64,000 bases of DNA from a virus, in the IMG/VR virus record IMGVR_UViG_3300017613_000561, positions 1-64,000 of that record, one strand, 5' to 3'. Positions 11,627 through 60,298 of this stretch are shown here, piece after piece; the stretch's first letter is position 1; every line of letters starts with the position of its first letter. A program made the translations under genes and the position numbers. The notes under the pieces are model-generated. The model was not told the DNA's origin. It saw only the letters and a program-made list of their open reading frames with translations, and searched no databases.

Positions 11627-14600
11627 ATGTCTTTCCGTTCTTTTGGGTTATCACCGTATGGACTGCCCAAAGGAGTGCAGGGAACTGCTACCGACCACTC
11701 AGGGCAGAAAGCCCCCCGTCCGTATGGTCTATCCCCTTACGGGTTAGCCAAAAACCCCATATCTATCGTTACTGGTAACATTGCCACAGGCGTTGCTGGG
11801 CACTTCTCGTTTACAGGTAAGGCTTCTGAGGTATCCACCCCAACCACTGCCCAAGGCGTAGCAGGTCATCTTGCCTTAACAGGCAACGCTTCAGAAGCAG
11901 GTATACCTAATATAGCAGCAGGGGTGGCAGGGCATCTTACGCTTACAGGTAAAGTAGCTACTGCCAAAATAGACAACATTGCATTAGGTGTTGCAGGACA
12001 TCTTGACTTTACCGGCAATGCTTCAAAAACCACAGGGTCAAATACTGTTGAAGGTGTCGCAGGGCATTTAACTCTCACAGGAAAAGCAGCACAAGTCAAT
12101 ACACCTACCACCAGTTTAGGTGTAGCTGGGCATCTGTCTTTAACGGGGAAAGATGCTACCGCTAAGACTATTCCTTACCACTGGGCGCAGGGGGTTGCTG
12201 GGCATTTATCCTTAACTGGGAAAACTGCTACTGCCAAGATAGACAATATTGCTCAAGGTGTATCTGGGCATTTGAGTCTCACCGGTAATGCTTCGATAAC
12301 CACCCAGAAAGATACTGCTCTGGGTGTAGCAGGCCACCTGCCGTTCCTTAAGAAGTTCGGTAAGGTAGATAACGGGATCACGGTAACTACGGAGATTAAA
12401 GAAGGTCCGATAGATTATACCGATGATGTACTGGTAGACATCACCCCTGTAGTTTCTGAGTATGTAACCACCGGGATACCTATAGGTTATAACGTAACCG
12501 GCATATATGGTGCGGGTAGCTCCGGGATCAACGGTACGACATTAAACACTGGTCCTATAAACCAGCCTGGAGTTAATTACCCAGGACCGGACATTCAGGC
12601 CAATCTGAACTTTAGCTGGTCTCAGGGAGCAGTTCTGGTTGGGGGTATGACCTTTAAGTACGTCCTGATGGACGATGCTGAATATGGTCATGGAGAGCTG
12701 AACCATAAGTATGGGCAGGGCACACCAGAACCGGTGGTGTATAGTTCTGATCTGAATATGGTGTGGGAGCTTGATGCATATGTAGCCACTGCTCAGATTA
12801 ATGAGTTAAATTTCAGATTAGCCCATACTGGTGTTGACTATTACGCAGATTGTTTAAGTGAGATAAATGCTTTAAGGGTAGCAGAGGATCTGCCCCCGTT
12901 ATTACGCTACTCAAATGTTTCAGGTATCCCAGGATCAGATATTGCTTGGGATATGTCACATCAAATGGCTAAGCACAGTATTTTTGCCACAGAGAGCCCA
13001 TCCTTTGATGAAGGCTTTAGGACCCTGGAGGATTACAGTAACATGGTACCAGAAGGGGTGTGGAAGATAGGTGCTCTGGCAGCAGTTTGGGCTATGGATT
13101 CCATACCAACCCCAGCAGATTTAGTTGCATGGTTTGCAGCACAGCCTACATCATTGGAATATATGCTGGATGACTACAAGGAAGATAACAGCCCAGACCC
13201 CAGCAATAAATACGAACATTTTTGGATAGGCATTGAGTATAATTGGGAAAACGCTAGTCTGGATGGACCTACAGGCAATCCGGCTGGTACCAAGTATGCC
13301 TACATCACCTTTATATTTGGCGGAGTACTACAGGCGGGAGCAGACGGTATGCAAGAGATATCCTTAAACAACAAATACCAGATGGCGGCATACTCTGTAA
13401 GCACTCTGAGTAATAAGTATGAGCAGGATGCTTATACGGAGGTTCTGGTACAACATGATTCACCGTATGGGCTCAGGGTGGCAAATCAACATGAGGCTCC
13501 TTTTGGCTCTAGGGCTACCCAGCAGCATGTTGCTCCTATCACTTACAGGGTAGCAAGGCAGTTGGATGCCCCTTACGGGGAAATGGTACGTGTGATTACC
13601 CAGCATGACTCTAAATATGCTATCCAGCAGTACAACTTTGTAACCACAGACCATGCGGCCCTTTGGAGTATAGGTAATGTAGTGGTTCAGCACAACGCCC
13701 CTTATGTGGGACTAGGCCGAGTGCAAGTGCAGCACTTAAGTGCATACACTGCCACAGATACGGTAGTGAAGCAGCATGATGCTCCATATAGGATAGATGA
13801 CTTTAATAGGGTGCTTTCGGACCTGACCAGTATTTGGAGCATGATGTCGGATACTGATTATGCTGCAGCTCCGATCAGAAAGCTTATCCATAATGGGGTG
13901 GAGATAGAAATAGACTCCCTCACACTGTCCAGTTCTGAGAGCGGTGTAGCGTGGGAGTTTGAAGCTGCCCTTGTGGATGTAAAGGACTACAAGACTATTA
14001 CCAGAAGGGACACCATCATAGTGCAGCTGGCTGCAGACCAGTACACCATGGTTGTGGAGAGTAAGGAGTTGAATAGATCAGATCCAGCAGAAGTAACCAT
14101 GAGGCTGCGTGGAGCCAGTCCTATTGTTCTGAAGGCCCCACCGCATGCACAGACGATAACCAAATCGTACACCTCCATTATGTCTGCCAAGGCCATTGTG
14201 GAGGATCTCCTTGGTGAATCAGTAACGTGGGGCATTGTAGACTGGTTTATTCCTGCATATCGCATGGCGGTGTCCAACGGGTCGGCAATTACGGCTGCCC
14301 AGCGGGTTGTAGAGGCCGTAGGTGGTGTTATTGAGTCGAACTTGAACGGAACGATCAATATACGGCCGAAGTACCCTGTGACGGTTCCAGACTTCAGTAC
14401 TGCTACCCCTGACATGGTTTTGACGGACATAGATGACAATTTGTCAGTATCTGAAGGATTCCATATGGTAGAGAGTTATAATGTCTACCGGGTGAAGGAT
14501 GGGGACTCTGTATACCAGGATAAGCTGGAGCATGTTCCTGATCCAGATAACAAGTTTGCTCCCTGTACTATCAGGTGTTACCCGACCCCATGGAGGACGA

Positions 14601-25562: not shown

Positions 25563-25574
25563 GCACTTAAGTGC
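25563..25574. repeat. palindrome GCACTTAAGTGC
   Basis: exact copy after lysis module. Confidence 0.9.
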
Positions 25575-28373: not shown

Positions 28374-29339
28374 ATGTCTGTAACCCACGTAAAGGCGGCG
28401 TATGCCGCTGTTGGTCTGTCGTCCACTCAAAAGTCAGTACTGTGCTGTTTGGCACACCACGCAGATAAAGCGGGAAAGTGCTGGCCTTCATTCAGGTATA
28501 TCCAGAAAAGCACCGGTCTTAGTCGAAGCACTGTAGCCAGAGGTATTTTGAAGCTAAAAAACTGGGGCTTTATAACCACTACGCCCCGATCCGGGAAGTG
28601 GGGCGGTCAAGTTTCCAGTCTGTACACCGTGCACATAAGTGCAGGACATGTCACAGAAGATAGAAATTCCAAAGTCACTGTGACACCCACCCCATGTCAA
28701 CATGACACCCCCCCCGTGTCACCACGACACCCCCATATATTATATAAATATAATATATTGAATAATAATGGGAACAGTAACAGTGAAGCGGGGAAAACCC
28801 CGCAGAAGAAGGAGCAGATTATGAAGATACCCCAAGGACAAAAGGCAAAGGATATAATCACCTCTTGGGCAGGCAAAGGCCCGAAGCACGATTACGTTCC
28901 GCCTTCGGTAGGGAACAAGTTACAGAAGGTGTGGCACAGTTCTATAGAAGAATACACGCACCCATGGACACAGGAGACCCTTGGAAAGGCCACGCACTTT
29001 GGAAAGACACTAGGGTTTGAGAAGGCCAAGGCTGTTATGGAATATGTTTTGGTGCATTGGTTGGATTATTGCCAGAGGGTCAAGTCAGATGTAGGGCTGT
29101 ATAAGGCCCCTGTAAAGCCTAGCGTTGGATTCCTGCTTAAGCATGCTGAGGTAGCGGTGAACATGTTTGAAGGCAGCACAGGGCTTAACAGCCCCTCAGA
29201 AAAGGGGCCGCAACCAGATGTAATGCATGCTGACGGCACCAAAACGACTATTCCAAAGCCTAAGGCTGGGCTGGCAGGTTCTCTTGGGGGCACGATACCC
29301 ACGGTTAAGACCGCGCACTTAAGTGCAGATGAGGAGTAA
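28374..29339 (+). CDS. replication initiator with N-terminal HTH
   Basis: LCCLAHHAD...CWPS...TGLSRSTV HTH; contains iterons and AT-rich tract; upstream of loader and helicase. Confidence 0.8.
   Translation: MSVTHVKAAYAAVGLSSTQKSVLCCLAHHADKAGKCWPSFRYIQKSTGLSRSTVARGILKLKNWGFITTTPRSGKWGGQVSSLYTVHISAGHVTEDRNSKVTVTPTPCQHDTPPVSPRHPHILYKYNILNNNGNSNSEAGKTPQKKEQIMKIPQGQKAKDIITSWAGKGPKHDYVPPSVGNKLQKVWHSSIEEYTHPWTQETLGKATHFGKTLGFEKAKAVMEYVLVHWLDYCQRVKSDVGLYKAPVKPSVGFLLKHAEVAVNMFEGSTGLNSPSEKGPQPDVMHADGTKTTIPKPKAGLAGSLGGTIPTVKTAHLSADEE
28631..28642. repeat. palindrome family, variant GCACATAAGTGC
   Basis: 1 mismatch; next to origin iterons. Confidence 0.65.
28674..28769. other. putative replication origin: three iterons plus AT-rich unwinding element
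   Basis: GTCA-N3-YGACACCC units at 28674, 28696, 28718 (22-bp period), then an almost pure A/T run at 28735-28769. Confidence 0.7.
29315..29326. repeat. palindrome GCACTTAAGTGC
   Basis: exact copy at 3' end of initiator gene. Confidence 0.9.
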
Positions 29340-32691: not shown

Positions 32692-32703
32692 GCACTTGAG
32701 TGC
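32692..32703. repeat. palindrome family, variant GCACTTGAGTGC
   Basis: intergenic; T/A flanks. Confidence 0.8.
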
Positions 32704-35139: not shown

Positions 35140-35165
35140 GTGTGCCCCCTGTTATGGGGGCGCAC
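35140..35165 (+). terminator. hairpin after SSB gene
   Basis: gtgtgccccc-tgttat-gggggcgcac; overlaps a palindrome site. Confidence 0.5.
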
Positions 35166-35173
35166 TTAAGTGC
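35162..35173. repeat. palindrome GCACTTAAGTGC
   Basis: exact intergenic copy. Confidence 0.9.
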
Positions 35174-36507: not shown

Positions 36508-36963
36508 ATGGGTAGAAAGAAACAATACGATGACGGTCTTACGCCATATCAGAGATGGTATGCCAGGAACAAAAAGGCACATAACAAAAAGCGTAGGGAT
36601 AAGTATCAGGAAGATACTGACTATCGTGAAAAGAAGATTCAGGAGGCCAGGGACTACCGTAGTAGTGTTCGTATGCCAGAACACCATCTACAGATACAGA
36701 CGGAAGAGGGTGTTCGGTTTGTTTATCAGATACAGGTGGCGGCTGATTGGGCTGAATGTACGGTAGAGGAATTAGACTACTGGAGGAAGAAAGGGTTGTT
36801 GGGGGCTCCTCTGTATTACGGTAAGGAAAAGGTGTATTTGAAGAGGCATATGCTGGTCATACATAGACTGGTTGCTTTGTTAAGTCAGGGGTCTATGGAT
36901 AAAGAATCTAGGACTAAATGGAAGTCTTACCTTTCAGAGGTGTGGGATGCCCGTGCCAGATAA
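36508..36963 (+). CDS. MerR-like HTH DNA-binding protein
   Basis: YQIQVAADWAECTVEELDYWRKKGLL. Confidence 0.55.
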   Translation: MGRKKQYDDGLTPYQRWYARNKKAHNKKRRDKYQEDTDYREKKIQEARDYRSSVRMPEHHLQIQTEEGVRFVYQIQVAADWAECTVEELDYWRKKGLLGAPLYYGKEKVYLKRHMLVIHRLVALLSQGSMDKESRTKWKSYLSEVWDARAR

Positions 36964-37263: not shown

Positions 37264-38331
37264 ATGTCTAAAGCTGCTGACGTAGCCTCAGAGCTACAAA
37301 AAAAGTTGGGTGAGACCGTTGTCACCACTGGTGAGTATTTGGTGGATGTAGAACGCATACCTACAGGGGTGTTCCCTTTTGACTTATCTTGTGGGGGTGG
37401 TTTTCCAAGGGGTAAGGTTTCCATAGTTTATGGCCCTGAATCGTCAGGTAAGACCAACTTGTTTTTGTTGTCCATTGCTTTGGAACAGAAGTTGAACCCA
37501 CACATGGAAAACGTGTTTGTGGATGTGGAGAACAGCTTTGATCCCTCCTGGGCCAAGAAGATGGGGGTGGATGTAGACAAGTTGCTGGTGTTGCATCCAG
37601 ATCATGCAGAGCAGGCTGTTGATATGGTGGATGCCATGTTGCAGGCTGAGGATGTGTCGTTGATAGTGGTGGATTCACTGGCAGCAATGATCCCGCTTAA
37701 TGAGCAGGATAGTACGGCTGCAAAGGCGCAGGTTGGTGGGGCCAGTGCGTTGATAGGAAAGTTGATCCGTAAGGGTGTAAGTCAGCAGTCTAAAGAGAAG
37801 CGCAAGGGACATTACCCTACACTGCTATTGGTGAATCAGATCCGTATGAAGATCGGGGTCATGTTTGGTAGCCCTGAGACCATGCCTGGAGGTAACGCTA
37901 TAAAGTTTGCCTCAGGCCTTACTGCCAGGATATACGGTAAGAATGAGATGTTGGAGAGCATATCTAAGACCATGCCTGTATTGAAGGAGACTCAGGTTGT
38001 TATCCAGAAATGGAAGGTGCCTATTGTAGCGGTGAACAGTAAGTACAAGATGTGCATGATTCCACACAATGGAATGGTGCCTGGAGATGTGAGAGATAGG
38101 GGGACAGTGGAGACGTACCTCAGGGATATGGGTCAGATCGTAAAGCAGGGGGCCAAGTGGTTTTTCTTTGGCACGGAGTATAAGACCCTGACGGCTGGGT
38201 TGGATGCCCTGTACGCAGATGAAGAGGCCCTGACCTACGCTAAGCAGATGATTATAGATGGTATGGTTAGCAAGATTCATGGATTACCCACGGAGTTTGA
38301 TGATGTGGAAGAGAAAAACAACAAAAAATAA
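37264..38331 (+). CDS. recA: RecA/UvsX-like recombinase
   Basis: GPESSGKT, IVVDSLAA, NQIRMKIGVMFGSPETMPGGNAIKF. Confidence 0.93.
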   Translation: MSKAADVASELQKKLGETVVTTGEYLVDVERIPTGVFPFDLSCGGGFPRGKVSIVYGPESSGKTNLFLLSIALEQKLNPHMENVFVDVENSFDPSWAKKMGVDVDKLLVLHPDHAEQAVDMVDAMLQAEDVSLIVVDSLAAMIPLNEQDSTAAKAQVGGASALIGKLIRKGVSQQSKEKRKGHYPTLLLVNQIRMKIGVMFGSPETMPGGNAIKFASGLTARIYGKNEMLESISKTMPVLKETQVVIQKWKVPIVAVNSKYKMCMIPHNGMVPGDVRDRGTVETYLRDMGQIVKQGAKWFFFGTEYKTLTAGLDALYADEEALTYAKQMIIDGMVSKIHGLPTEFDDVEEKNNKK

Positions 38332-38710
38332 GAACCCCTTTGTCCCCGGCAATGATTCGGACCATGGTGGGAACTCAGAGGTACGGGTTGCGGAAAGTTT
38401 AGGTGCAGAGACGACTATGGCTAGTGGTGCAATGCCGGGGGATAAAGGTGATTTTGACTTGGAGGCCGGGGAGCATTATTCCTTTAAAGGTGAGTGTAAA
38501 GCCACCAGGAATGAAAGCATGTCCCTTAAGTTGTCTTGGCTACATAAGATAAGATTGGAGGCCTTGGAAGTTAATAAACTACCTTGCCTTACAGTGTCGT
38601 TTGTAACCCCAACTGGGGAGGCGAAAGACAATGGAGATTGGGTGCTCGTACCGGCTAGAGTATTCAAAGAAGTGTTTACTAATAATGGAGATAATGATGA
38701 CTGCGATTAA
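38300..38710 (+). CDS. PD-(D/E)xK nuclease, Holliday-junction-resolvase-like
   Basis: E...SGA...KGD...ECK motif. Confidence 0.65.
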   Translation: MMWKRKTTKNKNPFVPGNDSDHGGNSEVRVAESLGAETTMASGAMPGDKGDFDLEAGEHYSFKGECKATRNESMSLKLSWLHKIRLEALEVNKLPCLTVSFVTPTGEAKDNGDWVLVPARVFKEVFTNNGDNDDCD

Positions 38711-38990
38711 AAAGCTACAGGTGTACCAGACCTCTGATGGGTCTGTTTATGAAGATGAGAACGAGGCTCTACGACATCAGGCCATGTTGGACTCAGGGGC
38801 TAGGGTGGACGATTACCTGAACGGGTTGAAGATCAGTGAGCAGGCCAAGGCTAGACGCAAGACCACCATTCTGGAGTGGGTTGCCTATGAAGCCGGGTTG
38901 CCTGTGGATGTTGGGGAAGAGGATACGCCTAAGAAAGAGTCCCCGGGTGCTGCCAAGAAAGAGGATGCTAAAAAGAAAGCTGCTGAGTAA
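38694..38990 (+). CDS. hypothetical protein
   Basis: YQTSDGSVYEDENEA motif. Confidence 0.55.
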   Translation: MMTAIKKLQVYQTSDGSVYEDENEALRHQAMLDSGARVDDYLNGLKISEQAKARRKTTILEWVAYEAGLPVDVGEEDTPKKESPGAAKKEDAKKKAAE

Positions 38991-39928
38991 TGAAATTTGC
39001 TAAGAAGCTGTCGGAGCATATGCCCAAGGAAGGGCTTAAGCTCCATATACATCGGTTGCTGGCTGGGTGGGACAAGCCTAGACCAGTAACGCATATTCAT
39101 GCCAGTGATTTGACCAAGATGGATAAGAACACGGAGTATTGTCCCCGGGAGTTTGCACTTCTCCAACTCACAGGGTACAAGGCCAAGGACAGGTTCATAG
39201 GTACCAGTTTACAATACACTTTTGATATGGGCAGGCTATTAGAGCACCAGATGCAAAATGTGTATGCCAAAGATATAGCCATAGGTGAATGGTTATGTTT
39301 CCACTGCAGTAAGAAGACTTCTTTTGGGAGCCATCCCGGTACTTGTACGGTGTGTAACCGTAAGGATTGGAACTATATTGAGCCCAGATTTATGTCCCAA
39401 TATTGTGGTGCGAGTGGCGGTATAGATTTGTTGGTAAAACTAAAGGGGGAGAAAAAGTTACGGTTGGTAGAAGTGAAGAGCATAGACAAGGATATGTATA
39501 AGCAGTTGGTAGCTCCATTAGCTGAACATACGCTAAGAACCAATCTGTACCTGCGGCTGGTAGAGGAGAGTAACTCCCCGTTCAAAGATATGGTGAACAC
39601 CAAGGAAGGAATGGTGTTTTACATGTGTAAAGGTTTTGGGACTCAAGATAATAGTCTGACTGATTTTGCTGTAACAGATGCTGGGTTCAGCCCGTTTAAG
39701 GAGTTCTTTGTTGGGCGCAATGATTCGGACACAGATGCGTTGGTAGAGCTGTCCCGGCAGTTGTTTGCCTGGAGAAATAAAGCGGCCGGTGTACCGCCCC
39801 CGATATGCTCCCATGGTATGTGTCCCCGGGCTAAAAAGTGCAAGGTAGCTAAGGTGTGTTGGTCTGGAGAATATCCTCCAGGGGCCAAAATATATCTGGA
39901 GGATAAAAATGAAAGTACTGGGGCTTGA
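38990..39928 (+). CDS. PD-(D/E)xK exonuclease (Cas4/AddB-like, Cys-rich)
   Basis: HASD...CPR, G..D...EVKS, C-terminal C..C..C cluster. Confidence 0.7.
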   Translation: MKFAKKLSEHMPKEGLKLHIHRLLAGWDKPRPVTHIHASDLTKMDKNTEYCPREFALLQLTGYKAKDRFIGTSLQYTFDMGRLLEHQMQNVYAKDIAIGEWLCFHCSKKTSFGSHPGTCTVCNRKDWNYIEPRFMSQYCGASGGIDLLVKLKGEKKLRLVEVKSIDKDMYKQLVAPLAEHTLRTNLYLRLVEESNSPFKDMVNTKEGMVFYMCKGFGTQDNSLTDFAVTDAGFSPFKEFFVGRNDSDTDALVELSRQLFAWRNKAAGVPPPICSHGMCPRAKKCKVAKVCWSGEYPPGAKIYLEDKNESTGA

Positions 39929-40460
39929 TACCTCCACCAAAACTGGGGCAGTAGTTGTTGATTTCTTTGGGCATGATGGCCCTATAACAAATGGGTTTAA
40001 AATCTTGTTTGCTGAGGAGTTGGAGCATAAGAAGCTAAAGGATTTGGAACGCTGCGCTGCTTTAGCTGGGGATGTGATTGAGATTATGGAAACGCATACC
40101 CCTGATCTGGCTGTGATTGAAGGCTACGGGTATGGGAACGCAAATACGCTGGTTACCTTGGTGGAGATAGGTACTATCATCAGGTACTTTCTGAAACAGT
40201 ACCAGCTGCCCTATGTAGTGGTGGCCCCAACCACACTAAAGAAGTTTGTGACGGGTAAGGGTAATGCCACTAAAGATCAGATGATGCTGCAGGTTTACAA
40301 GCGTTGGAGGTACGAGGCAGACACCAACAATATTGCAGATGCAGTGGGCCTTGCTATGACAGGAGGTGCGTTGTATGGGCACTTAGACATGCCCAAGCAG
40401 AACATGGAGGCTTTAAAACCACTGCGTAGAGAACTACCTTCACTATCCCTCAGCACTTAA
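39909..40460 (+). CDS. ruvC: RuvC-like Holliday junction resolvase
   Basis: VLGLDTS, VIEG, PTTLKKFVTGKGNATK, NIADA. Confidence 0.88.
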   Translation: MKVLGLDTSTKTGAVVVDFFGHDGPITNGFKILFAEELEHKKLKDLERCAALAGDVIEIMETHTPDLAVIEGYGYGNANTLVTLVEIGTIIRYFLKQYQLPYVVVAPTTLKKFVTGKGNATKDQMMLQVYKRWRYEADTNNIADAVGLAMTGGALYGHLDMPKQNMEALKPLRRELPSLSLST

Positions 40461-40488
40461 GTGCAAAACTAATTAAGAACTTAAGTGC
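40453..40488. repeat. tandem pair GCACTTAAGTGC (40453) and GAACTTAAGTGC (40477)
   Basis: ACTTAAGTGCAAAACTA directly repeated with a 24-bp period. Confidence 0.9.
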
Positions 40489-40496
40489 AAAACTAT

Positions 40497-40525
40497 TTGA
40501 CAAACGCAGTTAGCTATGTCATAGT
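40497..40525 (+). promoter_or_regulatory. sigma70-type promoter (TTTGACAAAC family)
   Basis: TTGACA-17-CATAGT with extended -10 TG; preceded by two palindrome sites. Confidence 0.7.
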
Positions 40526-40571
40526 TAAGACACGGTTAACAACTTTTACACGTAACGTAAGTAAGGAGAAT

Positions 40572-41441
40572 ATGATGGCTGAGTCACCCACAATGAAAGT
40601 CCTGACTAAAGGACAGAAGGACGGGAATAAAGCAACTGCAAAGACCACCAAGGCCCCCGCTAAGAAGGCTGTGAAAACCACCAAGTCCAAGGTCAAGACC
40701 GGTGAGGTGGTGGGTAAAGATCTGATTCTGGACACAGTACAAGAGTTGGAGAACATGAACCAAGCGGCCACCCTTAAAGGTGTCAGGGCTTGTTTGGAAA
40801 CAGCTGGTTATAGTAATTTCCAGTTGGGTGGGCTATTGCAGCGCATCCAGGAAGAAGGCTGGTGGGATAACGGAGAGCATGAATCCTTCAAGGACTTTAT
40901 TCAGGCGGAGTATGGTTTGGGCCTGCGTAAAGCTGCTTACCTCATGGCGATATATACCGGGCTGGTTGAATCCGGTGTCAAGTGGGAGCAGGTTCAGGCT
41001 CTGGGTTGGACCAAGCTGCGTGAACTGGTCTCTATGCTGACTGTAGATAATGTTGATGAATGGGTGGAGAAGGCCAAGGAGATGACCACTCTGCAGTTGA
41101 TCGAATACATCAAGGCAGAGAAGGCACAGGGTAAGGGTGATAAAGATGCACCTACCAAGGAAGAGGCACAGAAGATCAAGACCAAGACCTTCAAGCTCCA
41201 TGCTGACCAGCTGGAGACCGTAGACACAGCACTTGAACGGGCTCGGGAAGAGGGTGAGACGGAGTATGACACGGTAGCACTTGATTACATCTGCATGCGG
41301 TACCTCAGTAATGATGCAGGTAAGGCCAAGACGACTAAGCCGCCTACTTTGGAGAAGCAGTTCAAAGAAGCCGGTGTTGATAAGGTGCTGGAAGCCTTTG
41401 AAGAGGCGTTTCCAGAGTGCAACATCACGGTAGCTATGTAA
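40572..41441 (+). CDS. putative DNA-binding protein (K/A/T-rich N-tail plus HTH-like core)
   Basis: KATAKTTKAPAKKAVKTTKSK; SFKDFIQAEYGLGLRKAAYLM resembles DUF3102/ParB-type HTH. Confidence 0.55.
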   Translation: MMAESPTMKVLTKGQKDGNKATAKTTKAPAKKAVKTTKSKVKTGEVVGKDLILDTVQELENMNQAATLKGVRACLETAGYSNFQLGGLLQRIQEEGWWDNGEHESFKDFIQAEYGLGLRKAAYLMAIYTGLVESGVKWEQVQALGWTKLRELVSMLTVDNVDEWVEKAKEMTTLQLIEYIKAEKAQGKGDKDAPTKEEAQKIKTKTFKLHADQLETVDTALERAREEGETEYDTVALDYICMRYLSNDAGKAKTTKPPTLEKQFKEAGVDKVLEAFEEAFPECNITVAM

Positions 41442-41449
41442 TTACCGGT

Positions 41450-41469
41450 GGGGGGCAAGAATGCCCCCC
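41450..41469 (+). terminator. hairpin terminator
   Basis: ggggggca-agaa-tgcccccc; no U-tract. Confidence 0.5.
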
Positions 41470-41491
41470 TATAGGATCAAGGAGAATAGAT

Positions 41492-41680
41492 ATGTTGTTT
41501 CTTAATCAGGTATATGTTCCAGGGATTCTGTATGAACACATCAGGGTTTTCCATATCGTAACAGGACTGCTGTTGACGGCGGTCACTGGTTGGTGGGCCT
41601 TCATTCTAGTTGTACAGGTGTTCTATGCTATTTGGGTTGCCTTTGAGAGGAATGATCTGCGTAAGGGCAGCACCATTTAG
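41492..41680 (+). CDS. small membrane protein
   Basis: AAGGAG RBS; hydrophobic. Confidence 0.5.
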   Translation: MLFLNQVYVPGILYEHIRVFHIVTGLLLTAVTGWWAFILVVQVFYAIWVAFERNDLRKGSTI

Positions 41681-41693
41681 TAAGGAGGGGATC

Positions 41694-42098
41694 GTGAAGG
41701 TTATATGTCCGTATTGCGATAATCCGGCAGAGCTGGTGGATGGAACAACGGTTTACCCACACAGGCCCGATCTAGGGCACTTGAAGTTTTGGAATTGTGC
41801 CCCTTGTAATGCCTACGTAGGAACACATAAGAATAGTCGTAGACATAAGCCATTAGGAAGATTAGCCAATGCAGAACTTAGAAACTGGAAAGGTTTTGCC
41901 CACGGTGCTTTCGATCCCTTATGGGAGACCATGGTAATACGGGATAACATTAAGGCAGTAAAGGCCAGAGGTAGAGCCTACAAGTGGTTGGCTGCACAAC
42001 TGGAGATAGATATTAAGGATTGTCATATTGGGATGTTTGATGTGGCTATGTGTAAAAGAGTGGTAGGTCTTTGTCATAGAACGCGGGTCATTATGTAA
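41694..42098 (+). CDS. DUF3268-like zinc-finger protein
   Basis: CPYC, CNAYVGTH, PLGRLAN, AHGAFDPLW, CHIGMFD. Confidence 0.8.
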   Translation: MKVICPYCDNPAELVDGTTVYPHRPDLGHLKFWNCAPCNAYVGTHKNSRRHKPLGRLANAELRNWKGFAHGAFDPLWETMVIRDNIKAVKARGRAYKWLAAQLEIDIKDCHIGMFDVAMCKRVVGLCHRTRVIM

Positions 42099-42119
42099 CG
42101 TAAATTATCAGGAGGGATC

Positions 42120-42296
42120 ATGCCATATTTCAGGGTAACGTGGGAGATGTATTTTGAAACAGACACACCACAGGAAGCAGCAGAGGAGGCTTTGAGGGTA
42201 CAGCGAGATCCAGCCTCAGAAGCTACCTGCTTTGTTGTAGTCAACATGGGTACTGGGGATCAGATGTATGTTGACATAGATATAGTAGATCCATAG
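42120..42296 (+). CDS. 58-aa hypothetical protein; not in ORF track
   Basis: AGGAGG RBS; MPYFRVTWEM... Confidence 0.55.
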   Translation: MPYFRVTWEMYFETDTPQEAAEEALRVQRDPASEATCFVVVNMGTGDQMYVDIDIVDP

Positions 42297-42306
42297 GGAG
42301 ATTATC

Positions 42307-42624
42307 ATGGGTAAGATTGCACAATTAGAAGAAAGCCTGACAATTGTCACTAATGAGTTGGAGAAGGCTAAGATTGAGTGTAGAGGTTTTGAACGCTCAG
42401 TAAAAGAACAGCAACGTATGCGGCAGGAGGCGGAGTCTGAGCTTACCTGCCTTAGGACACAGTTGGGTGACATACAGAAGGCTATCCAGTTAGTAACTGC
42501 CATAACGTATCCAGAAGCAGAACTGTACTCTGCGGAAGTATATATGCCTGCAGGTGGGCTAAAAGCTAAGGCAGAAGACGAGGAGCTGAGATTCCTTAGG
42601 TACATTTATAAGTTGTGCCGGTAA
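42307..42624 (+). CDS. coiled-coil hypothetical protein
   Basis: GGGAG RBS. Confidence 0.5.
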   Translation: MGKIAQLEESLTIVTNELEKAKIECRGFERSVKEQQRMRQEAESELTCLRTQLGDIQKAIQLVTAITYPEAELYSAEVYMPAGGLKAKAEDEELRFLRYIYKLCR

Positions 42625-42630
42625 TACTAT

Positions 42631-42659
42631 TTGACAAACGTCCCTCTAATTAGTACAGT
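42631..42659 (+). promoter_or_regulatory. sigma70-type promoter (TTTGACAAAC family)
   Basis: TTGACA-17-TACAGT. Confidence 0.7.
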
Positions 42660-42688
42660 ATTAGGACAATAACACCCTAGGAGGGCTT

Positions 42689-42871
42689 ATGCCTAACCAA
42701 CTTTTGCGTCTCCCCAGTGGCCATATTTTTATCCCGCTACATGATGATGAGCTAGATAAATACCACACCATTTATCATTTTAGTTACCGTGGTGCTGTAG
42801 GTTTGCTTGGAAAATTAGCCCCAACCAGCCTAAATGGGTGGGAAGTGGTAGCTGTATATATAGAGGAGTAG
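42689..42871 (+). CDS. hypothetical protein
   Basis: AGGAGG RBS behind promoter. Confidence 0.5.
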   Translation: MPNQLLRLPSGHIFIPLHDDELDKYHTIYHFSYRGAVGLLGKLAPTSLNGWEVVAVYIEE

Positions 42872-42885
42872 GAAGTTATTATTGT

Positions 42886-42914
42886 TTGACAAACGTACAA
42901 CTATACAGCATAGT
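42886..42914 (+). promoter_or_regulatory. sigma70-type promoter (TTTGACAAAC family)
   Basis: TTGACA-17-CATAGT. Confidence 0.7.
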
Positions 42915-42948
42915 ATAGTTAGGGTACACATAAAAGCTAGGAGCTAAA

Positions 42949-44109
42949 ATGAAGCAGCTAGTAATATCAATGACAGATCCAAGTAAGAAGTATGAGGTGG
43001 ACCTGGAGAAGGAAACCTGTAATTGTCCAGCCTATGCTAAGGGTAAGACTCGCCCCTGTAAGCATCTGGTTGAGCTGGGAGTTAAGCCAAAAAAGAAGAA
43101 GGTAGTCACCAGCTATGTGAAGTCAGCTATCCAGAAGGCCTACCGTAGGAATGATCAGCCATTGTTAATCTGGAGCTTTAACTGGCTCTGGAAGAATGAG
43201 CGTAACTGGATCTGGTGGAGATACATGGTGCTACCAGCAGAAGACCACTGGAAGGGTGTGGTGGAGATGGGCAGGGCTCATGATGAAGCTAAGATGGTCT
43301 ATAAGCATGATCCTGTGGGGGCCAAGCATTTATTGCTATGTGGGTTGTTGAACACGATGGCTCAGAAGAAGAGTCAGGATTCTAACGGGATTCGCCAGTT
43401 AGCTGATGTAGTCAGATCTACTAGCCAGGTTAAGACCCCGCACTTGATGGGGGCCATTATTAAGAAAGTAGATGTATCCCAGATGTTGTTCTTTGAGTTT
43501 TACCGCAGTATTTCTGACCCAGTAGCCGTTGATGCTAAGGGTCTGATATCCCCCATTGTTTGGGAGACTATCTGGCATAAGGTAGCTGAACTGAAAGAGT
43601 CGGGTATTAGTCTGGGGAAGTACGTAGATCTGTGTGATGGGATCAAGGCTATGCAGTACCGCGCAGCCATGGGGGGAGGCCCAGGATACACCACTCTGTT
43701 TCTGGCAGTAATTGCCCTCCAACTCTACTACACAGAGCTGGGACGATCTATTACAGGGGAGCCTAGTGATGAGGTTCTGTCTTCTGGGGAATGGATTACC
43801 CCGCATGTAACCCCGCCGTGGTGCTGCTTGGATATGCATACAGGGCCTGGGAAGAGAGTGTTGGGCTACATCACCAAGATTGTCAGTAACACGCATATGG
43901 ATGGTGCCGAATGTAAGGCAGCAGTAGAAGAGATTTGGTTCATAAATGAAACCGCGCTGGTGAACGAAACCGATGAAGACAGTGTTTGGTGGAAGCTGGG
44001 ATGTAACGCCTATCTGATCCAGCACGGAGTAAAGCCAAAAGAGATGAAGAAACTTTGGGACGAGAAGTTGAGAGATATCGTCCGTAAGAAGATCATATTG
44101 TGGAGCTAG
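42949..44109 (+). CDS. SWIM zinc finger plus RarA/MgsA C-terminal-like domain protein
   Basis: CNCP...CKH SWIM; KSAIQKAYRR...WRYMVLPAED...LDMHT. Confidence 0.55.
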   Translation: MKQLVISMTDPSKKYEVDLEKETCNCPAYAKGKTRPCKHLVELGVKPKKKKVVTSYVKSAIQKAYRRNDQPLLIWSFNWLWKNERNWIWWRYMVLPAEDHWKGVVEMGRAHDEAKMVYKHDPVGAKHLLLCGLLNTMAQKKSQDSNGIRQLADVVRSTSQVKTPHLMGAIIKKVDVSQMLFFEFYRSISDPVAVDAKGLISPIVWETIWHKVAELKESGISLGKYVDLCDGIKAMQYRAAMGGGPGYTTLFLAVIALQLYYTELGRSITGEPSDEVLSSGEWITPHVTPPWCCLDMHTGPGKRVLGYITKIVSNTHMDGAECKAAVEEIWFINETALVNETDEDSVWWKLGCNAYLIQHGVKPKEMKKLWDEKLRDIVRKKIILWS

Positions 44110-44110
44110 T

Positions 44111-44122
44111 GCACTCAAGTGC
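44111..44122. repeat. palindrome family, variant GCACTCAAGTGC
   Basis: immediately after a stop codon. Confidence 0.8.
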
Positions 44123-46913: not shown

Positions 46914-47931
46914 AGGTAAGGTAGTGTTAGTCACAGGGGCAGGTGGGTCTATAGGAACCCGTCTGGTTAATGAGCTGTTGAATAACCCTAAGCCAAAGAG
47001 CCTTATACTTGTAGACCTGTGTGAGTACAATTTGTATCAGGTACAGCGAGTAGTCGAAGAATCCGGCGTAGCACTTAAGTGCAAGTACCTGTTGGCAGAC
47101 ATCCGGCACCGACATCTGATGGACTGTGTGTTTAGAGCAGAGGCCCCAGATGTGGTGTTTCACGCGGCAGCTCTGAAGCATGTTCCAATGTTGGAGACTC
47201 CGCATAATACGTTGGAGGCCATACGTACAAATATCCTGGGGACTAAGAATGTGCTGGACATGTCTGTGAGGTATGGAGCAGAACAGTTCCTACTGATATC
47301 GACAGATAAGGCCGTGAACCCTGTGTCCATGATGGGGGCCACCAAGACCTTTGCTGAGGGCTATGTGCGGGAGGCAGCTACATCAGTCAGCCTGAATGTG
47401 TCCATAGTGCGCTTCGGTAATGTTCTTGGTAGTTCCGGGTCAGTAGTGCCTCTGTTTGCTCGTCAGGTTGCTGAGGGCGGGCCTGTAACCGTAACGCATC
47501 CAGATATCATTAGGTATTTCATGTCTATAGATGATGCTGTGCGTTTAGTAGTTGAATCCGCACACCTGACGATAGCTTCGCATAAGACCTCATGCACTTA
47601 CGTGCTGAACATGGGAGATCCTGTGAAGATAGATGACTTGGCTAAGAAAATGATCTGGGAGTCGGGTAAGGATATAGCCATAAAGTACATAGGGCTCAGA
47701 GCCGGTGAGAAGATGGAGGAGGAGCTGCATTATGCTAATGAGTTCCTGGTACCGACAAGTCGTAAGAATATCAATATAGTACGGCAGAGCGACCACCTTA
47801 GAAGGGGGTTTGTTCGCGTAGCCAATGAGCTTGTTACCTTGTGTGATGAACGTGAGTTGCCTGATGCCTTTGTTGCCATTAAAGAAAAAGTTCCGTATCA
47901 AGGAGATACGATATTATGCGAGAGTTTGTAG
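46903..47931 (+). CDS. UDP-HexNAc 4,6-dehydratase (PglF/WbpM/CapD catalytic domain, soluble)
   Basis: VTGAGGSIG, HAAALKHVP, STDKAVNP..MGATK, VRFGNVLGSSGSVVP, RYFM, GEKMEEEL. Confidence 0.93.
   Translation: MSVEGKVVLVTGAGGSIGTRLVNELLNNPKPKSLILVDLCEYNLYQVQRVVEESGVALKCKYLLADIRHRHLMDCVFRAEAPDVVFHAAALKHVPMLETPHNTLEAIRTNILGTKNVLDMSVRYGAEQFLLISTDKAVNPVSMMGATKTFAEGYVREAATSVSLNVSIVRFGNVLGSSGSVVPLFARQVAEGGPVTVTHPDIIRYFMSIDDAVRLVVESAHLTIASHKTSCTYVLNMGDPVKIDDLAKKMIWESGKDIAIKYIGLRAGEKMEEELHYANEFLVPTSRKNINIVRQSDHLRRGFVRVANELVTLCDERELPDAFVAIKEKVPYQGDTILCESL
47071..47082. repeat. palindrome GCACTTAAGTGC
   Basis: exact copy inside dehydratase CDS. Confidence 0.9.
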
Positions 47932-49252: not shown

Positions 49253-50746
49253 ATGTCCACTAAGATTTTGATTGATTCGATATACTCAGCAAGGCCCAGT
49301 CACTGCGCCTCGGCCGTTAAGATGTGGCGGTTCGTAGATTACGTACTGAATACGCAAGGTAGAACGGATGTATTTTTTTATTGGCTAATCCCAGAATGGT
49401 TGGAGGAGGAAGACCTAGCCTTCTACCCGGAACACGACAACGTAGTTTACCTTCAGTTTCCGTATCACCGGGGAGACAGGACCCGAGCGTATCTGGCATT
49501 CCCGGCAGAGTTGGATAGGCTGTTGGCCTTCAATGGGGTGGCCTGGGATTTCGATATTGTAATGACGAACCGAACAACTCAAGTACCCTTGATGAAGATG
49601 GTGATGTCCAGTCCAAGAGAGCCAACGAAGACATGGATGAAGAACGTCTTCCTGTTTGAGGAAATGCCCCTCATGGCCTTTAAGTCCACAGTAGCCATAT
49701 CGAATGTGCCGGTAACGGAGCGCATGACCATAGCGGGGCATCTAGCCGCAGACAGGACCGCTATAACGATCTCTCACGAAAGGGATGGTCTGATATCGGG
49801 GGCCAAGAGATATGTGCCTCCGTCCTCGGTCATGGAGCTGAGGGACAAGATTAAGGTAACAAGCCCGTCTTTGCTGGAAGATTTTGAGGAGAAAGATAAG
49901 AAGTACCGGTTTACCAAGGGGGAAGAGAAGTTTTGCCTAGCCTTCGTAGGTAGGGTGTCTGCTACAGATCATATCAGGGAAGTGTATGACACCATGGTTA
50001 AGCATTGGATCACGAAGGGAGATGACCGTATCAAATTGATAGTCTCCACTGTAACCCCCGTGTATAAGATTGAGCCGCCTGAAATGGTGGAGTACATAAA
50101 CTTGCCCAGAGATGAATTTTGGGAGGCGCTGAAAACAGAGATGCACTGCATTATGTACTTGGCTGAGGAGGCTGGGTTTGGCATGTCCCTAATGGAGCCC
50201 CTGATGTTTGGGGTACCAGTAGTGTTGATCAGAGCCCCGTGGTCAGAGGCTTTGGTAGGCAAGGATTACCCGCTGTTCATAGACACGGAGTCAAAGGCCT
50301 ATGGGATGGTGAAGGCTATCCATGATGACTACGAGGAGTATTACCGGCAGTTTATCCAGTGGCAACATGATGTACTGCAGCCTATGTTTCAGGAAGGTGG
50401 GCAGTATTCGCAGTCATTCTATGACTATATGTACAAGGGCCTGTTGGAGTTTGAAGAGATGTTGCCTGCCAGATATGCAGCAGAGCAGGCCAGTAAGCAG
50501 AATAACAACATAGTCCAGGCACTGCTAGACGGAGACCCTGAAGAGTTTGTTTTGTTTGATCGTATACGGGAGCTGGGTAAGAAAGGAGATCTCAAGTCCT
50601 TGCAGTCCAAGACCCGAGAGGGGGACAGGGACCGTAGGGGCCTAGTATGGTCAACGCCATGGAACGATATACGGATAGCCCTGAAGACATTCTTTGGGTA
50701 TGAGGACGCCAGTGTAACTGTTGGACATTTGAGGAAGGTAAAATGA
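49253..50746 (+). CDS. GT-B fold (GT4-like) glycosyltransferase with C-terminal extension
   Basis: LAFVGR; EAGFGMSLMEPLMFGVPVV nucleotide-sugar binding motif. Confidence 0.75.
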   Translation: MSTKILIDSIYSARPSHCASAVKMWRFVDYVLNTQGRTDVFFYWLIPEWLEEEDLAFYPEHDNVVYLQFPYHRGDRTRAYLAFPAELDRLLAFNGVAWDFDIVMTNRTTQVPLMKMVMSSPREPTKTWMKNVFLFEEMPLMAFKSTVAISNVPVTERMTIAGHLAADRTAITISHERDGLISGAKRYVPPSSVMELRDKIKVTSPSLLEDFEEKDKKYRFTKGEEKFCLAFVGRVSATDHIREVYDTMVKHWITKGDDRIKLIVSTVTPVYKIEPPEMVEYINLPRDEFWEALKTEMHCIMYLAEEAGFGMSLMEPLMFGVPVVLIRAPWSEALVGKDYPLFIDTESKAYGMVKAIHDDYEEYYRQFIQWQHDVLQPMFQEGGQYSQSFYDYMYKGLLEFEEMLPARYAAEQASKQNNNIVQALLDGDPEEFVLFDRIRELGKKGDLKSLQSKTREGDRDRRGLVWSTPWNDIRIALKTFFGYEDASVTVGHLRKVK

Positions 50747-51582
50747 GCACTGCGTATGATAAGACCAAGAATCATGAACGTATCTGGTTGCCGATACACC
50801 AGTTGGAGCCTAACCCAGATAACCCGAACAAGATGAGCCCCCGGGCCTTTGACTTGTTGGTAGACAACATAGAAAGCAAGGGCATGACTGAGGACATTGA
50901 GGTGCGGCGTATTGGTAAGGACCAGTACCGCATCATTGGTGGTCATCATAGGTGGGGAGCCTGCGAGTACTTGGGCTGGAAGGAAGTACCCTGTATTGTA
51001 AATACTGACCCAGATATGACTGACGAAGTGGAGAATTTCCAGGTAGTCAGGATGAACATGATCCATGGTAAGTTGGACCCAACCAAGTTCATGGCTATGT
51101 ATCAGAAGGTGTCAGAAAAGTACTCTGATGAGATACTGGCTGAGTCCTTTGGTTTTGCTGACGAAGCGGAGTTTGCTAAGTTGATCAAGCAGACAGCCAA
51201 CACGCTTCCCCCAGAGTTGAAGTCAAAGTTTAAGGAGGCAGCTGCGGAGATAAAGACAGTAGAAGATTTAGCCACAGTGCTGAATGAATTGTTGTTCACG
51301 TATGGAAACACTGTAGCCTATGGATACATGATCTTTGATTTCAACGGTAAGGAGTCTGTGTGGGTCAGGATGAACCCCAAGGATAAGGTTGCTGCTATGA
51401 AAGTAGGAGACCTGTGTAGGGCTAACTCCAGGATGATGGACTCAGTAGTGTCTGCTCTGTTTCAGCTAACCCAGGAGGAGGGTGATTTGGGGGATTCAGT
51501 ACGAGCCCATTTGTTAGATGTAACCCACCCAGAAGAAATTGATTTGTCTGCTACATGGCCGACACAGGATCAGTTGAATTGA
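50743..51582 (+). CDS. ParB/Srx N-terminal domain protein
   Basis: LEPNPDNPN, IEVR, YRIIGGHHRW, RMNMIHG. Confidence 0.85.
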   Translation: MSTAYDKTKNHERIWLPIHQLEPNPDNPNKMSPRAFDLLVDNIESKGMTEDIEVRRIGKDQYRIIGGHHRWGACEYLGWKEVPCIVNTDPDMTDEVENFQVVRMNMIHGKLDPTKFMAMYQKVSEKYSDEILAESFGFADEAEFAKLIKQTANTLPPELKSKFKEAAAEIKTVEDLATVLNELLFTYGNTVAYGYMIFDFNGKESVWVRMNPKDKVAAMKVGDLCRANSRMMDSVVSALFQLTQEEGDLGDSVRAHLLDVTHPEEIDLSATWPTQDQLN

Positions 51583-52280
51583 AAGTAACGAAGGCCAATA
51601 AGTATGCTCCTATACGTAGCATGGGGGCAGATAAAGTAGACCGCATGGAGGTGATGCTGGTGCAAGGTATGTCTTGCCCCAAGGTAGCTAAGAAGATTCA
51701 AGACGAATGGAAACTACTGCAGGACATAAAGACAGGCACGTTGACCAAACAGATACTACGCTATAAGAAAGAAGTGCTGGATTCTAAGCTACATAGCAAG
51801 TTATTGATCAAGACAACGGAGGACAATAAAGATACGAAGGGTACAGATGTAAAGCAGTACAAGACTGTAATCAAAACGACCACCAAGCTTGATGTGATAG
51901 ACGCACTGGAGGATTTGATACTGCTGCAGAACCATAGGGTAGCTAAGGTGTTCACCATGGAGGAGAGTTTGCCTACGTTGATGGGCACTCTACGCTATGA
52001 ATTGAAAGAGCTGCGAGACATGATAAAGCAGTTATCAGACTTAAAATTTGACTTAGGACTGGTAAAAAGACAACCTAAGAAGATTGTTGGATCTATAGAC
52101 TTGCATTCACCAGAAGTTTTAGAGGATGAAGATGTACTTTCCAAGATGCTCGCAGATAAGGGGGCCATGGATGATGCAACCACGGAAGTGTTTGCAGCCT
52201 TAGAAGCTATGGTGAAAGAAGCCGGGGAGATTGAGGATGGAGAGTTTACTGACTGCGTACCCACTGACGGGGACAGTTGA
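51555..52280 (+). CDS. putative terminase small subunit
   Basis: N-terminal HTH-like segment, helical body, acidic tail; directly upstream of TerL; start uncertain. Confidence 0.55.
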   Translation: MADTGSVELKVTKANKYAPIRSMGADKVDRMEVMLVQGMSCPKVAKKIQDEWKLLQDIKTGTLTKQILRYKKEVLDSKLHSKLLIKTTEDNKDTKGTDVKQYKTVIKTTTKLDVIDALEDLILLQNHRVAKVFTMEESLPTLMGTLRYELKELRDMIKQLSDLKFDLGLVKRQPKKIVGSIDLHSPEVLEDEDVLSKMLADKGAMDDATTEVFAALEAMVKEAGEIEDGEFTDCVPTDGDS

Positions 52281-54184: not shown

Positions 54185-54196
54185 GCACTCAAGTGC
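54185..54196. repeat. palindrome family, variant GCACTCAAGTGC
   Basis: immediately after terL stop. Confidence 0.8.
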
Positions 54197-56191: not shown

Positions 56192-56365
56192 ATGTATAAG
56201 CATAGCACTAGAGTAATCTTATCAGGTCCCTTCAGCGCAGGTAGGGTGTATGCCCCTAATGGAGACAACTGGCGAGCTGTATGTTCGGACGGGAATGTAC
56301 CGGCTGACGATGCCGTTTCACTGATCGGATCTGATAAGGTTATTTGGATGGTAGAAAGCACTTAA
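56192..56365 (+). CDS. 57-aa hypothetical protein; not in ORF track
   Basis: AGGAG RBS; stop codon lies inside a palindrome site. Confidence 0.45.
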   Translation: MYKHSTRVILSGPFSAGRVYAPNGDNWRAVCSDGNVPADDAVSLIGSDKVIWMVEST

Positions 56366-56369
56366 GTGC
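56358..56369. repeat. palindrome GCACTTAAGTGC
   Basis: exact copy; supplies a TAA stop. Confidence 0.9.
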
Positions 56370-57884: not shown

Positions 57885-57896
57885 GCACTTAAGTGC
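57885..57896. repeat. palindrome GCACTTAAGTGC
   Basis: exact copy; supplies a TAA stop. Confidence 0.9.
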
Positions 57897-60024: not shown

Positions 60025-60298
60025 AAAGTTACTGCGGGTCTGTGCCTCATGTGAATGGGTGTTTAAGACAGGCTCGGTGGAGTGCCCCATGTGTGGGTTC
60101 GGATCGTATGGTGCCCACTATGTATATGGGCGCAAGGCTTATAAGTATGCCCACACTCAGAAACCTTGGCGCGACAATAAGATGTTTAAATACAGCATGC
60201 ACTTAAGTGCAGAGATAAGGAGAGCGTTAGATGAGCAAAAAACGAAAGAAAGAACCGCCAGTGCAGGAGTACAAGGAGCGGTACATTTGTCGTTGTAA
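60014..60298 (+). CDS. Zn-ribbon hypothetical protein
   Basis: CASC...CPMC. Confidence 0.5.
   Translation: MNPEKLLRVCASCEWVFKTGSVECPMCGFGSYGAHYVYGRKAYKYAHTQKPWRDNKMFKYSMHLSAEIRRALDEQKTKERTASAGVQGAVHLSL
60199..60210. repeat. palindrome GCACTTAAGTGC
   Basis: exact copy inside CDS. Confidence 0.9.

Follow-up and report, generated by a model that had tools for sequence, protein, structure and literature searches.

The 288-aa product of a gene at 40575..41441 in the viral record IMG/VR IMGVR_UViG_3300017613_000561 is tentatively put forward as the likeliest reader of a 12-bp palindrome dispersed over the same genome, and would be a dimeric, sequence-specific and autoregulated DNA-binding protein. 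The window analyzed was the first 64 kb of the 92,447-bp record, which was judged complete by CheckV. Within the window, 18 matches to the palindrome were found at ≤1 mismatch, compared with 0.17 expected (0 of 100 shuffles). The whole record held 15 exact copies, and the reversed control gave 0.

Palindromes at the promoter of the 288-aa protein gene

The sites and signals around the gene were as follows.

40453..40464: palindrome site 1, GCACTTAAGTGC, exact; centre at about -73.5 from the predicted transcription start
40477..40488: palindrome site 2, GAACTTAAGTGC, one mismatch; centre at about -49.5, end 8 bp upstream of the -35 hexamer
40497..40525, + strand: sigma-70-type promoter, with TTGACAAAC as extended -35, a 17-bp spacer and TG-n-CATAGT as extended -10
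40563..40569, + strand: Shine-Dalgarno AAGGAGA
40575..41441, + strand: gene for the 288-aa candidate regulator (P0001, PHROG 17202); alternative ATG at 40572, stop codon at 41439-41441
41450..41469, + strand: GC-rich hairpin 3' of the stop codon, 8-bp stem, -19.4 kcal/mol, z -2.8, no U tract

The two sites are 24 bp apart from start to start, and each lies inside a 17-nt direct repeat, ACTTAAGTGCAAAACTA. An initial annotation had placed this tandem pair 8 bp before the -35 box at 40497, and those positions were correct. It had also called the pair the only doubled site, which holds for the window; further on in the genome a second pair was found at 79447 and 79519 (72 bp apart), upstream of the prohead protease and capsid genes.

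The promoter hexamers (TTGACA at 40497-40502 and TG-n-CATAGT at 40518-40525) gave 10 of 12 consensus matches, with the TG present. The extended -35 TTGACAAAC occurs in 17 exact copies in the genome, 16 of them with a good -10, and only the copy at 40497 has abutting palindromes. The ATG at 40575 was chosen over that at 40572 because of its better spacing. The hairpin lacks a U tract, and termination at 41450..41469, and hence a monocistronic gene, is no more than plausible.

Site family in related phages

As relatives, 80 IMG/VR loci encoding a homolog of the 288-aa protein were used. Most of these loci were enriched for a 12-mer of the same design as the palindrome, with GCAAT-YR-ATTGC (Y, pyrimidine; R, purine) the commonest form and up to 28 copies in 20 kb. 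Symmetric variants in relatives included GCAATTAATTGC, and forms other than the commonest were GACATTAATGTC, GAAATTAATTTC, GCAGA-YR-TCTGC, GAACTTAAGTKC and GCAA-N4-TTGC; changes between phages were symmetric in both arms. The central dinucleotide was CA in 90 cases, TA in 77, TG in 57 and CG in 7, compared with TT in 2 and TC in 2, and CA and TG centres were both found on the same strand within single phages. Arm symmetry, the YR centre and the occurrence of both orientations together suit a symmetric dimer on duplex DNA, unlike a 4-bp RNA hairpin, and point, at the level of sequence, to the 12-bp palindrome being a double-stranded-DNA element read by such a dimer. On the coding strand the centre was biased to one orientation in some relatives (CA 9:0 in L064, about 15:3 in G017, CCAC at 8 of 10 sites in L018, and L069 also), which hints at a directional constraint despite the symmetric arms.

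Position relative to promoters was also conserved. Among about 510 distinct sites, 80 had TTGAC ≤60 bp downstream, and the gap was 9 bp in 31 of these, with gaps of 8 and 10 bp accounting for 6 and 5, respectively. At five loci (L021, L014, L018, L059 and L074) many sites were promoter-proximal with the centre near -50, often directly 3' of a terminator hairpin and before a -35/-10 pair.

It was considered whether the palindromes could instead be RNA or single-strand hairpins, serving as mRNA processing or stability signals or as parts of terminators, with no dedicated DNA-binding protein. Most copies in this genome do stand in transcribed gaps just upstream of a Shine-Dalgarno sequence, and the one-orientation bias in L064 and L018 would suit such a role. 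The 12-mer allows only a 4-bp stem with a 4-nt loop, however, the centre is YR only with CA and TG both on one strand, and many copies are fixed 9 bp upstream of a -35, in DNA that is untranscribed from that promoter. An Rfam search of 38000-44000 gave no family match. We consider this explanation very improbable.

Two promoter readings of the motif were rejected by inspection. For a sigma-54 promoter the GG is absent and the spacing is one base short, and for a -10-like element no hexamer of the motif combines A as its second base with T as its sixth. A search for closer relatives with the GCACT variant returned other IMG/VR records with single copies only. A full-text literature search for the motifs returned no phage paper, and the motif is not mentioned in the paper on phage DLP3 (PMC7326821).

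Association between site and gene

Across the relatives, the site was associated with the promoter of the homolog. A site ≤45 bp from the -35 hexamer was present at 12 of 24 homolog promoters, compared with 25 of 135 other TTGACA promoters. At 28 of 42 distinct motif-rich loci a site lay ≤160 bp upstream of the homolog (7.4% in random windows), and even at the 20 loci where sites were scarce or absent, 4 of 36 pattern matches fell in the 160-bp window, where 0.25 were expected (P ~1e-4). Paired sites upstream of the homolog recurred at L011, L020 and L071 (23 bp apart) and at L013 (10 bp apart, overlapping). In the cultured phages Summit and RcZahn, GCAATTAATTGC stands exactly 9 bp upstream of the homolog's -35 hexamer.

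At the genome level, array and homolog co-occurred in the near-complete genomes G000-G003, G005, G018, G019 and G020; in G006 the co-occurrence was weak, with only four sites in 107 kb. Three near-complete genomes without the homolog had a single chance site each. In a gene-content association over 10 kb either side, no gene cleanly separated array-positive from array-negative loci, and no rival gene gave a better separation.

Covariation between protein residues and motif was uninformative because of shared ancestry. At only 39% identity, L015 has both the ACTTAAGT core and the unusual residues L117 and R149 in common with this phage; L027 and L028 have GCACT half-sites but lack L117 and R149.

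Features of the 288-aa protein

The protein matched the PHROG 17202 profile over residues 16-287 (E 3.8e-72), a family with no assigned function; at E ≤1e-3, it comprised 4,177 clusters of a library built at 50% identity. An AlphaFold model (predicted local distance difference test, pLDDT, 81.8) was divided as follows.

40575..40718, + strand: residues 1-48, conserved N-terminal peptide (SPTMKxLxKG type), then a disordered K/A/T-rich linker
40719..41144, + strand: residues 49-190, helical core with a helix-turn-helix (HTH); predicted fold like the DNA-binding domains of ParB, Spo0J and KorB
41181..41324, + strand: residues 203-250, TFKLHxDQ strand then two helices; ribbon-helix-helix (RHH)-like module, presumed to dimerise and possibly to contact DNA

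In the model, the N-terminal peptide forms a short helix at residues 5-11, disorder extends up to residue 48, and the helical core spans residues 50-200, followed by the C-terminal part. The core contains ten invariant residues (F82, G85, G86, R118, K119, Y122, Y127, G144, W145 and K147), of which R118, K119 and K147 fall in the HTH region. R118-K119 open the second helix of the HTH pattern, and an invariant GWTK helix follows, an arrangement that we take to resemble the HTH and conserved GHAR helix of ParB. In an exhaustive structural search (VIA), the core matched ParB-parS (6s6h, Z 7.7, 113 residues), Spo0J (1vz0, Z 7.0), KorB-operator (1r71, Z 6.6) and KorB (8qa8, Z 5.2), with P1 ParB, SopB and VirB at Z ~4. 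In the protein atlas, the only leads were weak ones (DUF1016/ParB HTH and DUF3102, at 0.83).

The C-terminal module, modelled alone, had a pLDDT of 84.9. About 15 of the matches listed for residues 2-56 of this model were RHH proteins, all at Z <5 and with no significant sequence match; they included MazE9 (Z 4.6, 43 of 43 residues, root-mean-square deviation 2.1), NikR, Arc, AmrZ, ArtA and SvtR. The HTH-like core named in the initial annotation was recovered in the translation and models as a helical HTH domain that resembles those of ParB and KorB, and its possible dimerisation C-terminus models as an RHH-like module of a dimer-forming kind, at Z <5. The K/A/T-rich tail was also present in the translation, and its histone-like character proved peculiar to this phage: the net charge of the linker/tail is +10 here, compared with a median of 0 over 75 homologs, 52 of which were zero or negative, and the folded domains of the protein are acidic.

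Although the core resembles ParB-type domains in its predicted fold, the protein was not filed under the ParB family, since it lacks a ParB_N domain and showed no profile-level relation to the ParB family that the phage itself encodes. In a six-frame search of the genome, PF02195 (ParB_N) matched only at 50788-51015, in a different gene.

Four longer homologs (P0011, P0019, P0027 and P0031, ~350-420 aa) carry an extra N-terminal insert at alignment columns ~110-160, with a conserved stretch of the type LTxKELDALVxEHEIxxPEGWxKMxxxEKRAWL, which looks like a HeH/Rho_N-type helix-extension-helix motif. Homologs in GenBank are annotated as ‘putative ribonuclease E/G family protein’ or ‘putative single-stranded DNA binding protein’ (MN988459, MN988558, PP534163; OL473897, OL622073, OL343755, OQ383211). 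The searches made gave no support for either annotation, and both probably arise from the low-complexity linker. A single-stranded DNA-binding protein (SSB) was rejected as a reading, as there was no fold match and phage RcZahn annotates a separate gp32-like gene.

Possible alternative readers of the palindrome

Several results weigh against the 288-aa protein as reader. For the protein itself, no Pfam family was matched at E ≤1, nor by any of 36 homologs, and NCBIfam and PDB sequence searches (phmmer and profile) gave no match. A PF17762 (HTH_ParB) search of the genome was negative, and hhalign of the family against the phage's own ParBc family returned a probability of 0.4%. The fold scores were modest, in the middling range of the search tool itself; the best match to the core was the Raf1 alpha domain, which does not bind DNA (Z 8.8), and Foldseek against the PDB gave no match for either the whole model or the C-terminal model. 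The protein is acidic, with an isoelectric point of 5.45 overall and 4.7 in the HTH core; KorB is an acidic protein too. For the link with the sites, the palindrome expected at the equivalent promoter of phages carrying the homolog, which was kept at the 28 motif-rich loci given above, was absent from the other 14 of 42 (roughly a third). The co-occurrence seen in the near-complete genomes fails in phages SIO-2 and RHph_TM16, where the homolog is present and the array absent. Shared ancestry and clade membership confound the joint occurrence of gene and array, and the recognition helix is nearly identical across phages with different motifs (L014, L065 and the GCAAT group).

In a second explanation, another factor would use the palindromes as its operators, and the 288-aa protein would be no more than one of its regulated targets, for example an accessory of the adjacent RecA/Cas4-like/RuvC recombination module. 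The candidates are a ParB/Noc-like protein (50743..51582), an HTH_36 initiator-like protein (28374..29339), a MerR-like protein (36508..36963) and a host protein. The target role is consistent with synteny, as the gene lies with RecA-like, exonuclease and RuvC-like recombination genes in Summit, SIO-2, TM16 and RcZahn, and with the retention of the gene without the array in SIO-2 and TM16. An accessory role of the SSB kind is argued against by RcZahn, where SSB is assigned to the other gene, that of the gp32-like protein.

Among the candidates, the 279-aa ParB/Noc-like protein is a ParB/Noc relative by sequence (ParB_N 1e-11; TIGR00180 over residues 11-173), positions 5-184 of its family profile align with Noc structures (E 1.6e-11), and ParB and Noc proteins bind dispersed palindromes. 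Its ortholog is absent from G002 and G003, however; the complete and motif-rich G003 lacks any ParB_N domain, and in G002 ParB_N was found only in unrelated small open reading frames. The gene adjoins a glycosyltransferase gene and is absent from some complete relatives with dense arrays. The HTH_36 protein was present in 5 of 5 relatives tested, which also counts against the 288-aa protein, and one exact and one near site lie inside its gene. The small MerR-like HTH gene (Pfam MerR_1 at E 7e-4, short of the curated cut-off) has the helicase gene on one side and the RecA-like gene on the other, and is syntenic with an annotated ‘HTH transcriptional regulator’ of Summit and SIO-2; no such protein was detected in the most site-rich genome, G001. 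In this genome, the promoters of these candidate genes are all free of palindromes. With regard to a host protein, GCAAT-YR-ATTGC occurs both in Summit, a phage of Stenotrophomonas (a gamma-proteobacterium), and in RcZahn, a phage of Rhodobacter (an alpha-proteobacterium), and the same motif in phages of both classes favours a phage-encoded reader over a host one. A different factor is a serious possibility that falls short of probable, and the 288-aa protein was retained as the preferred reader.

Distribution of sites and promoters along the genome

Exact palindromes were spread across all genome modules. The other exact copies and centre variants recorded in the window were as follows.

13732..13743: exact, within the long tail gene
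25563..25574: exact, at the start of the early region; TTGACC 16 bp downstream
29315..29326: exact, in the final codons of the HTH_36 initiator-like gene; next ATG 16 nt on
32692..32703: centre variant GCACTTGAGTGC; stop codon on one side, next Shine-Dalgarno on the other
35162..35173: exact, immediately 3' of a GC hairpin; helicase ATG 11 nt on
44111..44122: centre variant GCACTCAAGTGC; stop codon upstream, next Shine-Dalgarno downstream
47071..47082: exact, within a coding gene
54185..54196: centre variant GCACTCAAGTGC, immediately 3' of the stop of gene 52231-54183
56358..56369: exact, in a short intergenic space; Shine-Dalgarno follows
57885..57896: exact, adjoining a TGA stop; next ATG 10 nt on
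60199..60210: exact, in a short intergenic space; next ATG 20 nt on

The usual setting of the sites was a stop codon, 0-5 nt, the palindrome, 0-2 nt, a Shine-Dalgarno sequence and a start codon, with a strong bias to intergenic gaps beside gene starts. Only two exact copies (13732 and 47071) were deep within genes. Along the map, the other palindromes alternate with TTGACAAAC promoters, so that a promoter is followed by one or two genes, then by a palindrome with its Shine-Dalgarno, and then by more genes.

This distribution also bears on whether the array is a device for chromosome architecture or segregation (of the matS, parS/NBS or N15 dispersed-centromere type), with a protein that bridges or condenses phage DNA or tethers a plasmid prophage. 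The copies kept within coding genes and the spread over all modules are consistent with such a device, and so is the biology of two relatives, DLP3 and DLP5, which are reported as temperate, DLP5 having been recovered as a phagemid (PMC7326821). The layout of the 288-aa protein, with a helical domain, an RHH module and C-terminal helices, recalls MatP. The strong bias of sites to intergenic gaps beside gene starts points the other way, as does the sharp 9-bp phasing to the -35 across many phages, which would be unexpected for a purely architectural site, and the genome yielded no Walker A motif of the ParA type. An architectural role is therefore judged unlikely. The genome-organisation system proposed in the initial annotation was accordingly less well supported than transcription control, which we favour because of the fixed 9-bp gap to the -35 across relatives. 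Its autoregulated, sequence-specific protein fared better, with the only TTGACAAAC promoter in this genome that carries palindromes and a site kept at 28 of 42 loci; the histone-like tail proved incidental.

Further features of the map were recorded. The hairpin at 35140 (region 35140-35173) continues straight into the palindrome, and the fold pairs the palindrome's first GCAC into the stem. GC-rich hairpins that lack U tracts (35140-35173 and 41450-41469) seem to be transcription-unit ends in the phage. The 650-aa product of gene 52231-54183 had no Pfam match.

Copies of TTGACAAAC were located at the following positions, all confined to the 25-72-kb early/middle region.

In the window: 25640, 25935, 27622, 31761, 34343, 40497, 42631, 42886, 54390, 54463, 55014, 55855, 58204, 62886
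Beyond the window: 65665, 69585, 71504

A (T/C)A(T/C)(A/G)(G/A)T -10 element follows 16 of the 17 TTGACAAAC(G) copies 16-17 bp downstream. The extended -35 recurs in related phages, for example as a core 10-mer in 15 copies in L059.

The second palindrome pair lies in a non-coding gap of ~1 kb (genome positions 78565-79575), 3' of gene 77254-78564. The gap also contains a TTGACATAC/TATAAT promoter (78577), tRNA-Gln (79010-79080) and a T-rich terminator, and the pair follows; the site at 79519 is 9 bp upstream of a CTTGCA -35-like hexamer, just before the prohead protease gene.

Proposed regulation and comparison with known systems

In the explanation that we favour, the 12-bp palindrome would be a double-stranded-DNA operator bound by a symmetric dimer, and the 288-aa product of 40575..41441 would be its most likely reader. 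From its N- to its C-terminus the protein would comprise five parts, namely a short conserved peptide, a disordered linker, an HTH domain like that of ParB and KorB but lacking the CTPase domain, an RHH-like dimer module and a small helical end. Bound to the two operators near -49.5 and -73.5 at its own strong promoter, it would exert negative autoregulation. The other ~20 sites lie mostly in minimal gaps of stop codon, palindrome and Shine-Dalgarno inside transcription units, and a dimer on these intergenic sites would act as a gate or roadblock to read-through transcription, a symmetric analogue of the stoperators of mycobacteriophages. The gate or roadblock role is suggested because the mix of promoter and short intergenic positions resembles stoperators. 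The analysis establishes the sites with their enrichment, covariation between phages and phasing to promoters, their special association with the promoter of this gene, and the predicted folds; we infer the binding of the protein to the sites, the sign of the regulation and the roadblock role.

In a wider reading, PHROG 17202 would be the master regulator throughout a widespread siphophage clade with genomes of 80-110 kb, with a CTPase-less ParB-fold HTH fused to an RHH dimeriser and a co-evolving, dual-role 12-bp palindrome as its site; at this breadth we hold the claim to be rather doubtful. The dual role would combine an operator at -50, at a strict 9-bp distance from the -35, with a gate between a stop codon and the next ribosome-binding site, and the system would be an independently evolved, symmetric-dimer counterpart of the stoperator network and the KorB operator network. 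The domain architecture and site family were not found in the literature searched.

The system resembles known global regulators with dispersed operators (KorB and the L5 repressor), and the 288-aa protein may work like KorB. In the KorB/OB system of plasmid RK2 the operators are likewise dispersed palindromes. Proximal KorB operators lie 4-10 bp upstream of the -35, including that at PkorA, the promoter of the regulator's own operon (PMC11790492); the proximal gap is 8 bp here and 9 bp in relatives. The DNA-binding domain is also alike in predicted fold (1r71 and 8qa8, at the Z scores given above). Unlike KorB, the 288-aa protein has no ParB_N/CTPase domain, and therefore no sliding-clamp mechanism, and no sequence-level similarity to ParB families. 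Its C-terminal module is RHH-like, whereas KorB has its own C-terminal domain, the operator is 12 bp rather than 16 bp, and neither a KorA-like partner nor a ParA/IncC partner was identified in the genome.

Operators and stoperators of mycobacteriophages comprise >20 copies of one short site at promoters and short intergenic spaces (PMC9283540). The Cluster A immunity repressor system (L5 gp71 type) is similar in having one type of site at promoters and short intergenic spaces genome-wide, and in site sequences that vary between related phages. The repressor differs, as it is a monomer that reads an asymmetric, orientation-dependent 13-mer, whereas a YR-centred palindrome in both orientations is found here, and the 288-aa protein is unrelated to it in sequence and predicted fold.

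The predicted fold of the HTH domain resembles that of ParB bound to parS (6s6h and 1vz0), and, as in ParB-parS and Noc-NBS, a flexible linker comes after a short N-terminal peptide. The binding sites of Noc are tens of dispersed palindromes. In contrast to these systems, no CTPase domain, ParA or Pfam HTH_ParB/ParB_N match was found, and the sites here are promoter-phased. MatP is a dimer with a helical domain, an RHH and C-terminal helices, and its matS sites are dispersed short palindromes with 5-bp arms that organise a chromosome domain and are not promoter-phased; MatP was not among the fold matches of the core or the C-terminal module.

Implications

If the proposed reading is true, it would give a function to a family of >4,000 clusters that is annotated as hypothetical or wrongly as RNase E/G or SSB, and would account for a conserved sequence signature found genome-wide in a large clade of phages, among them Stenotrophomonas phages that are candidates for therapy. 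A directly testable model of how the protein would meet RNA polymerase comes from the fixed 9-bp gap before the -35, and the same arrangement in the cultured relatives Summit, DLP3/DLP5 and RcZahn makes the reading easy to test. After KorB and the L5 repressor, the system would then represent a third, structurally distinct way to control a whole mobile genome via one dispersed operator.

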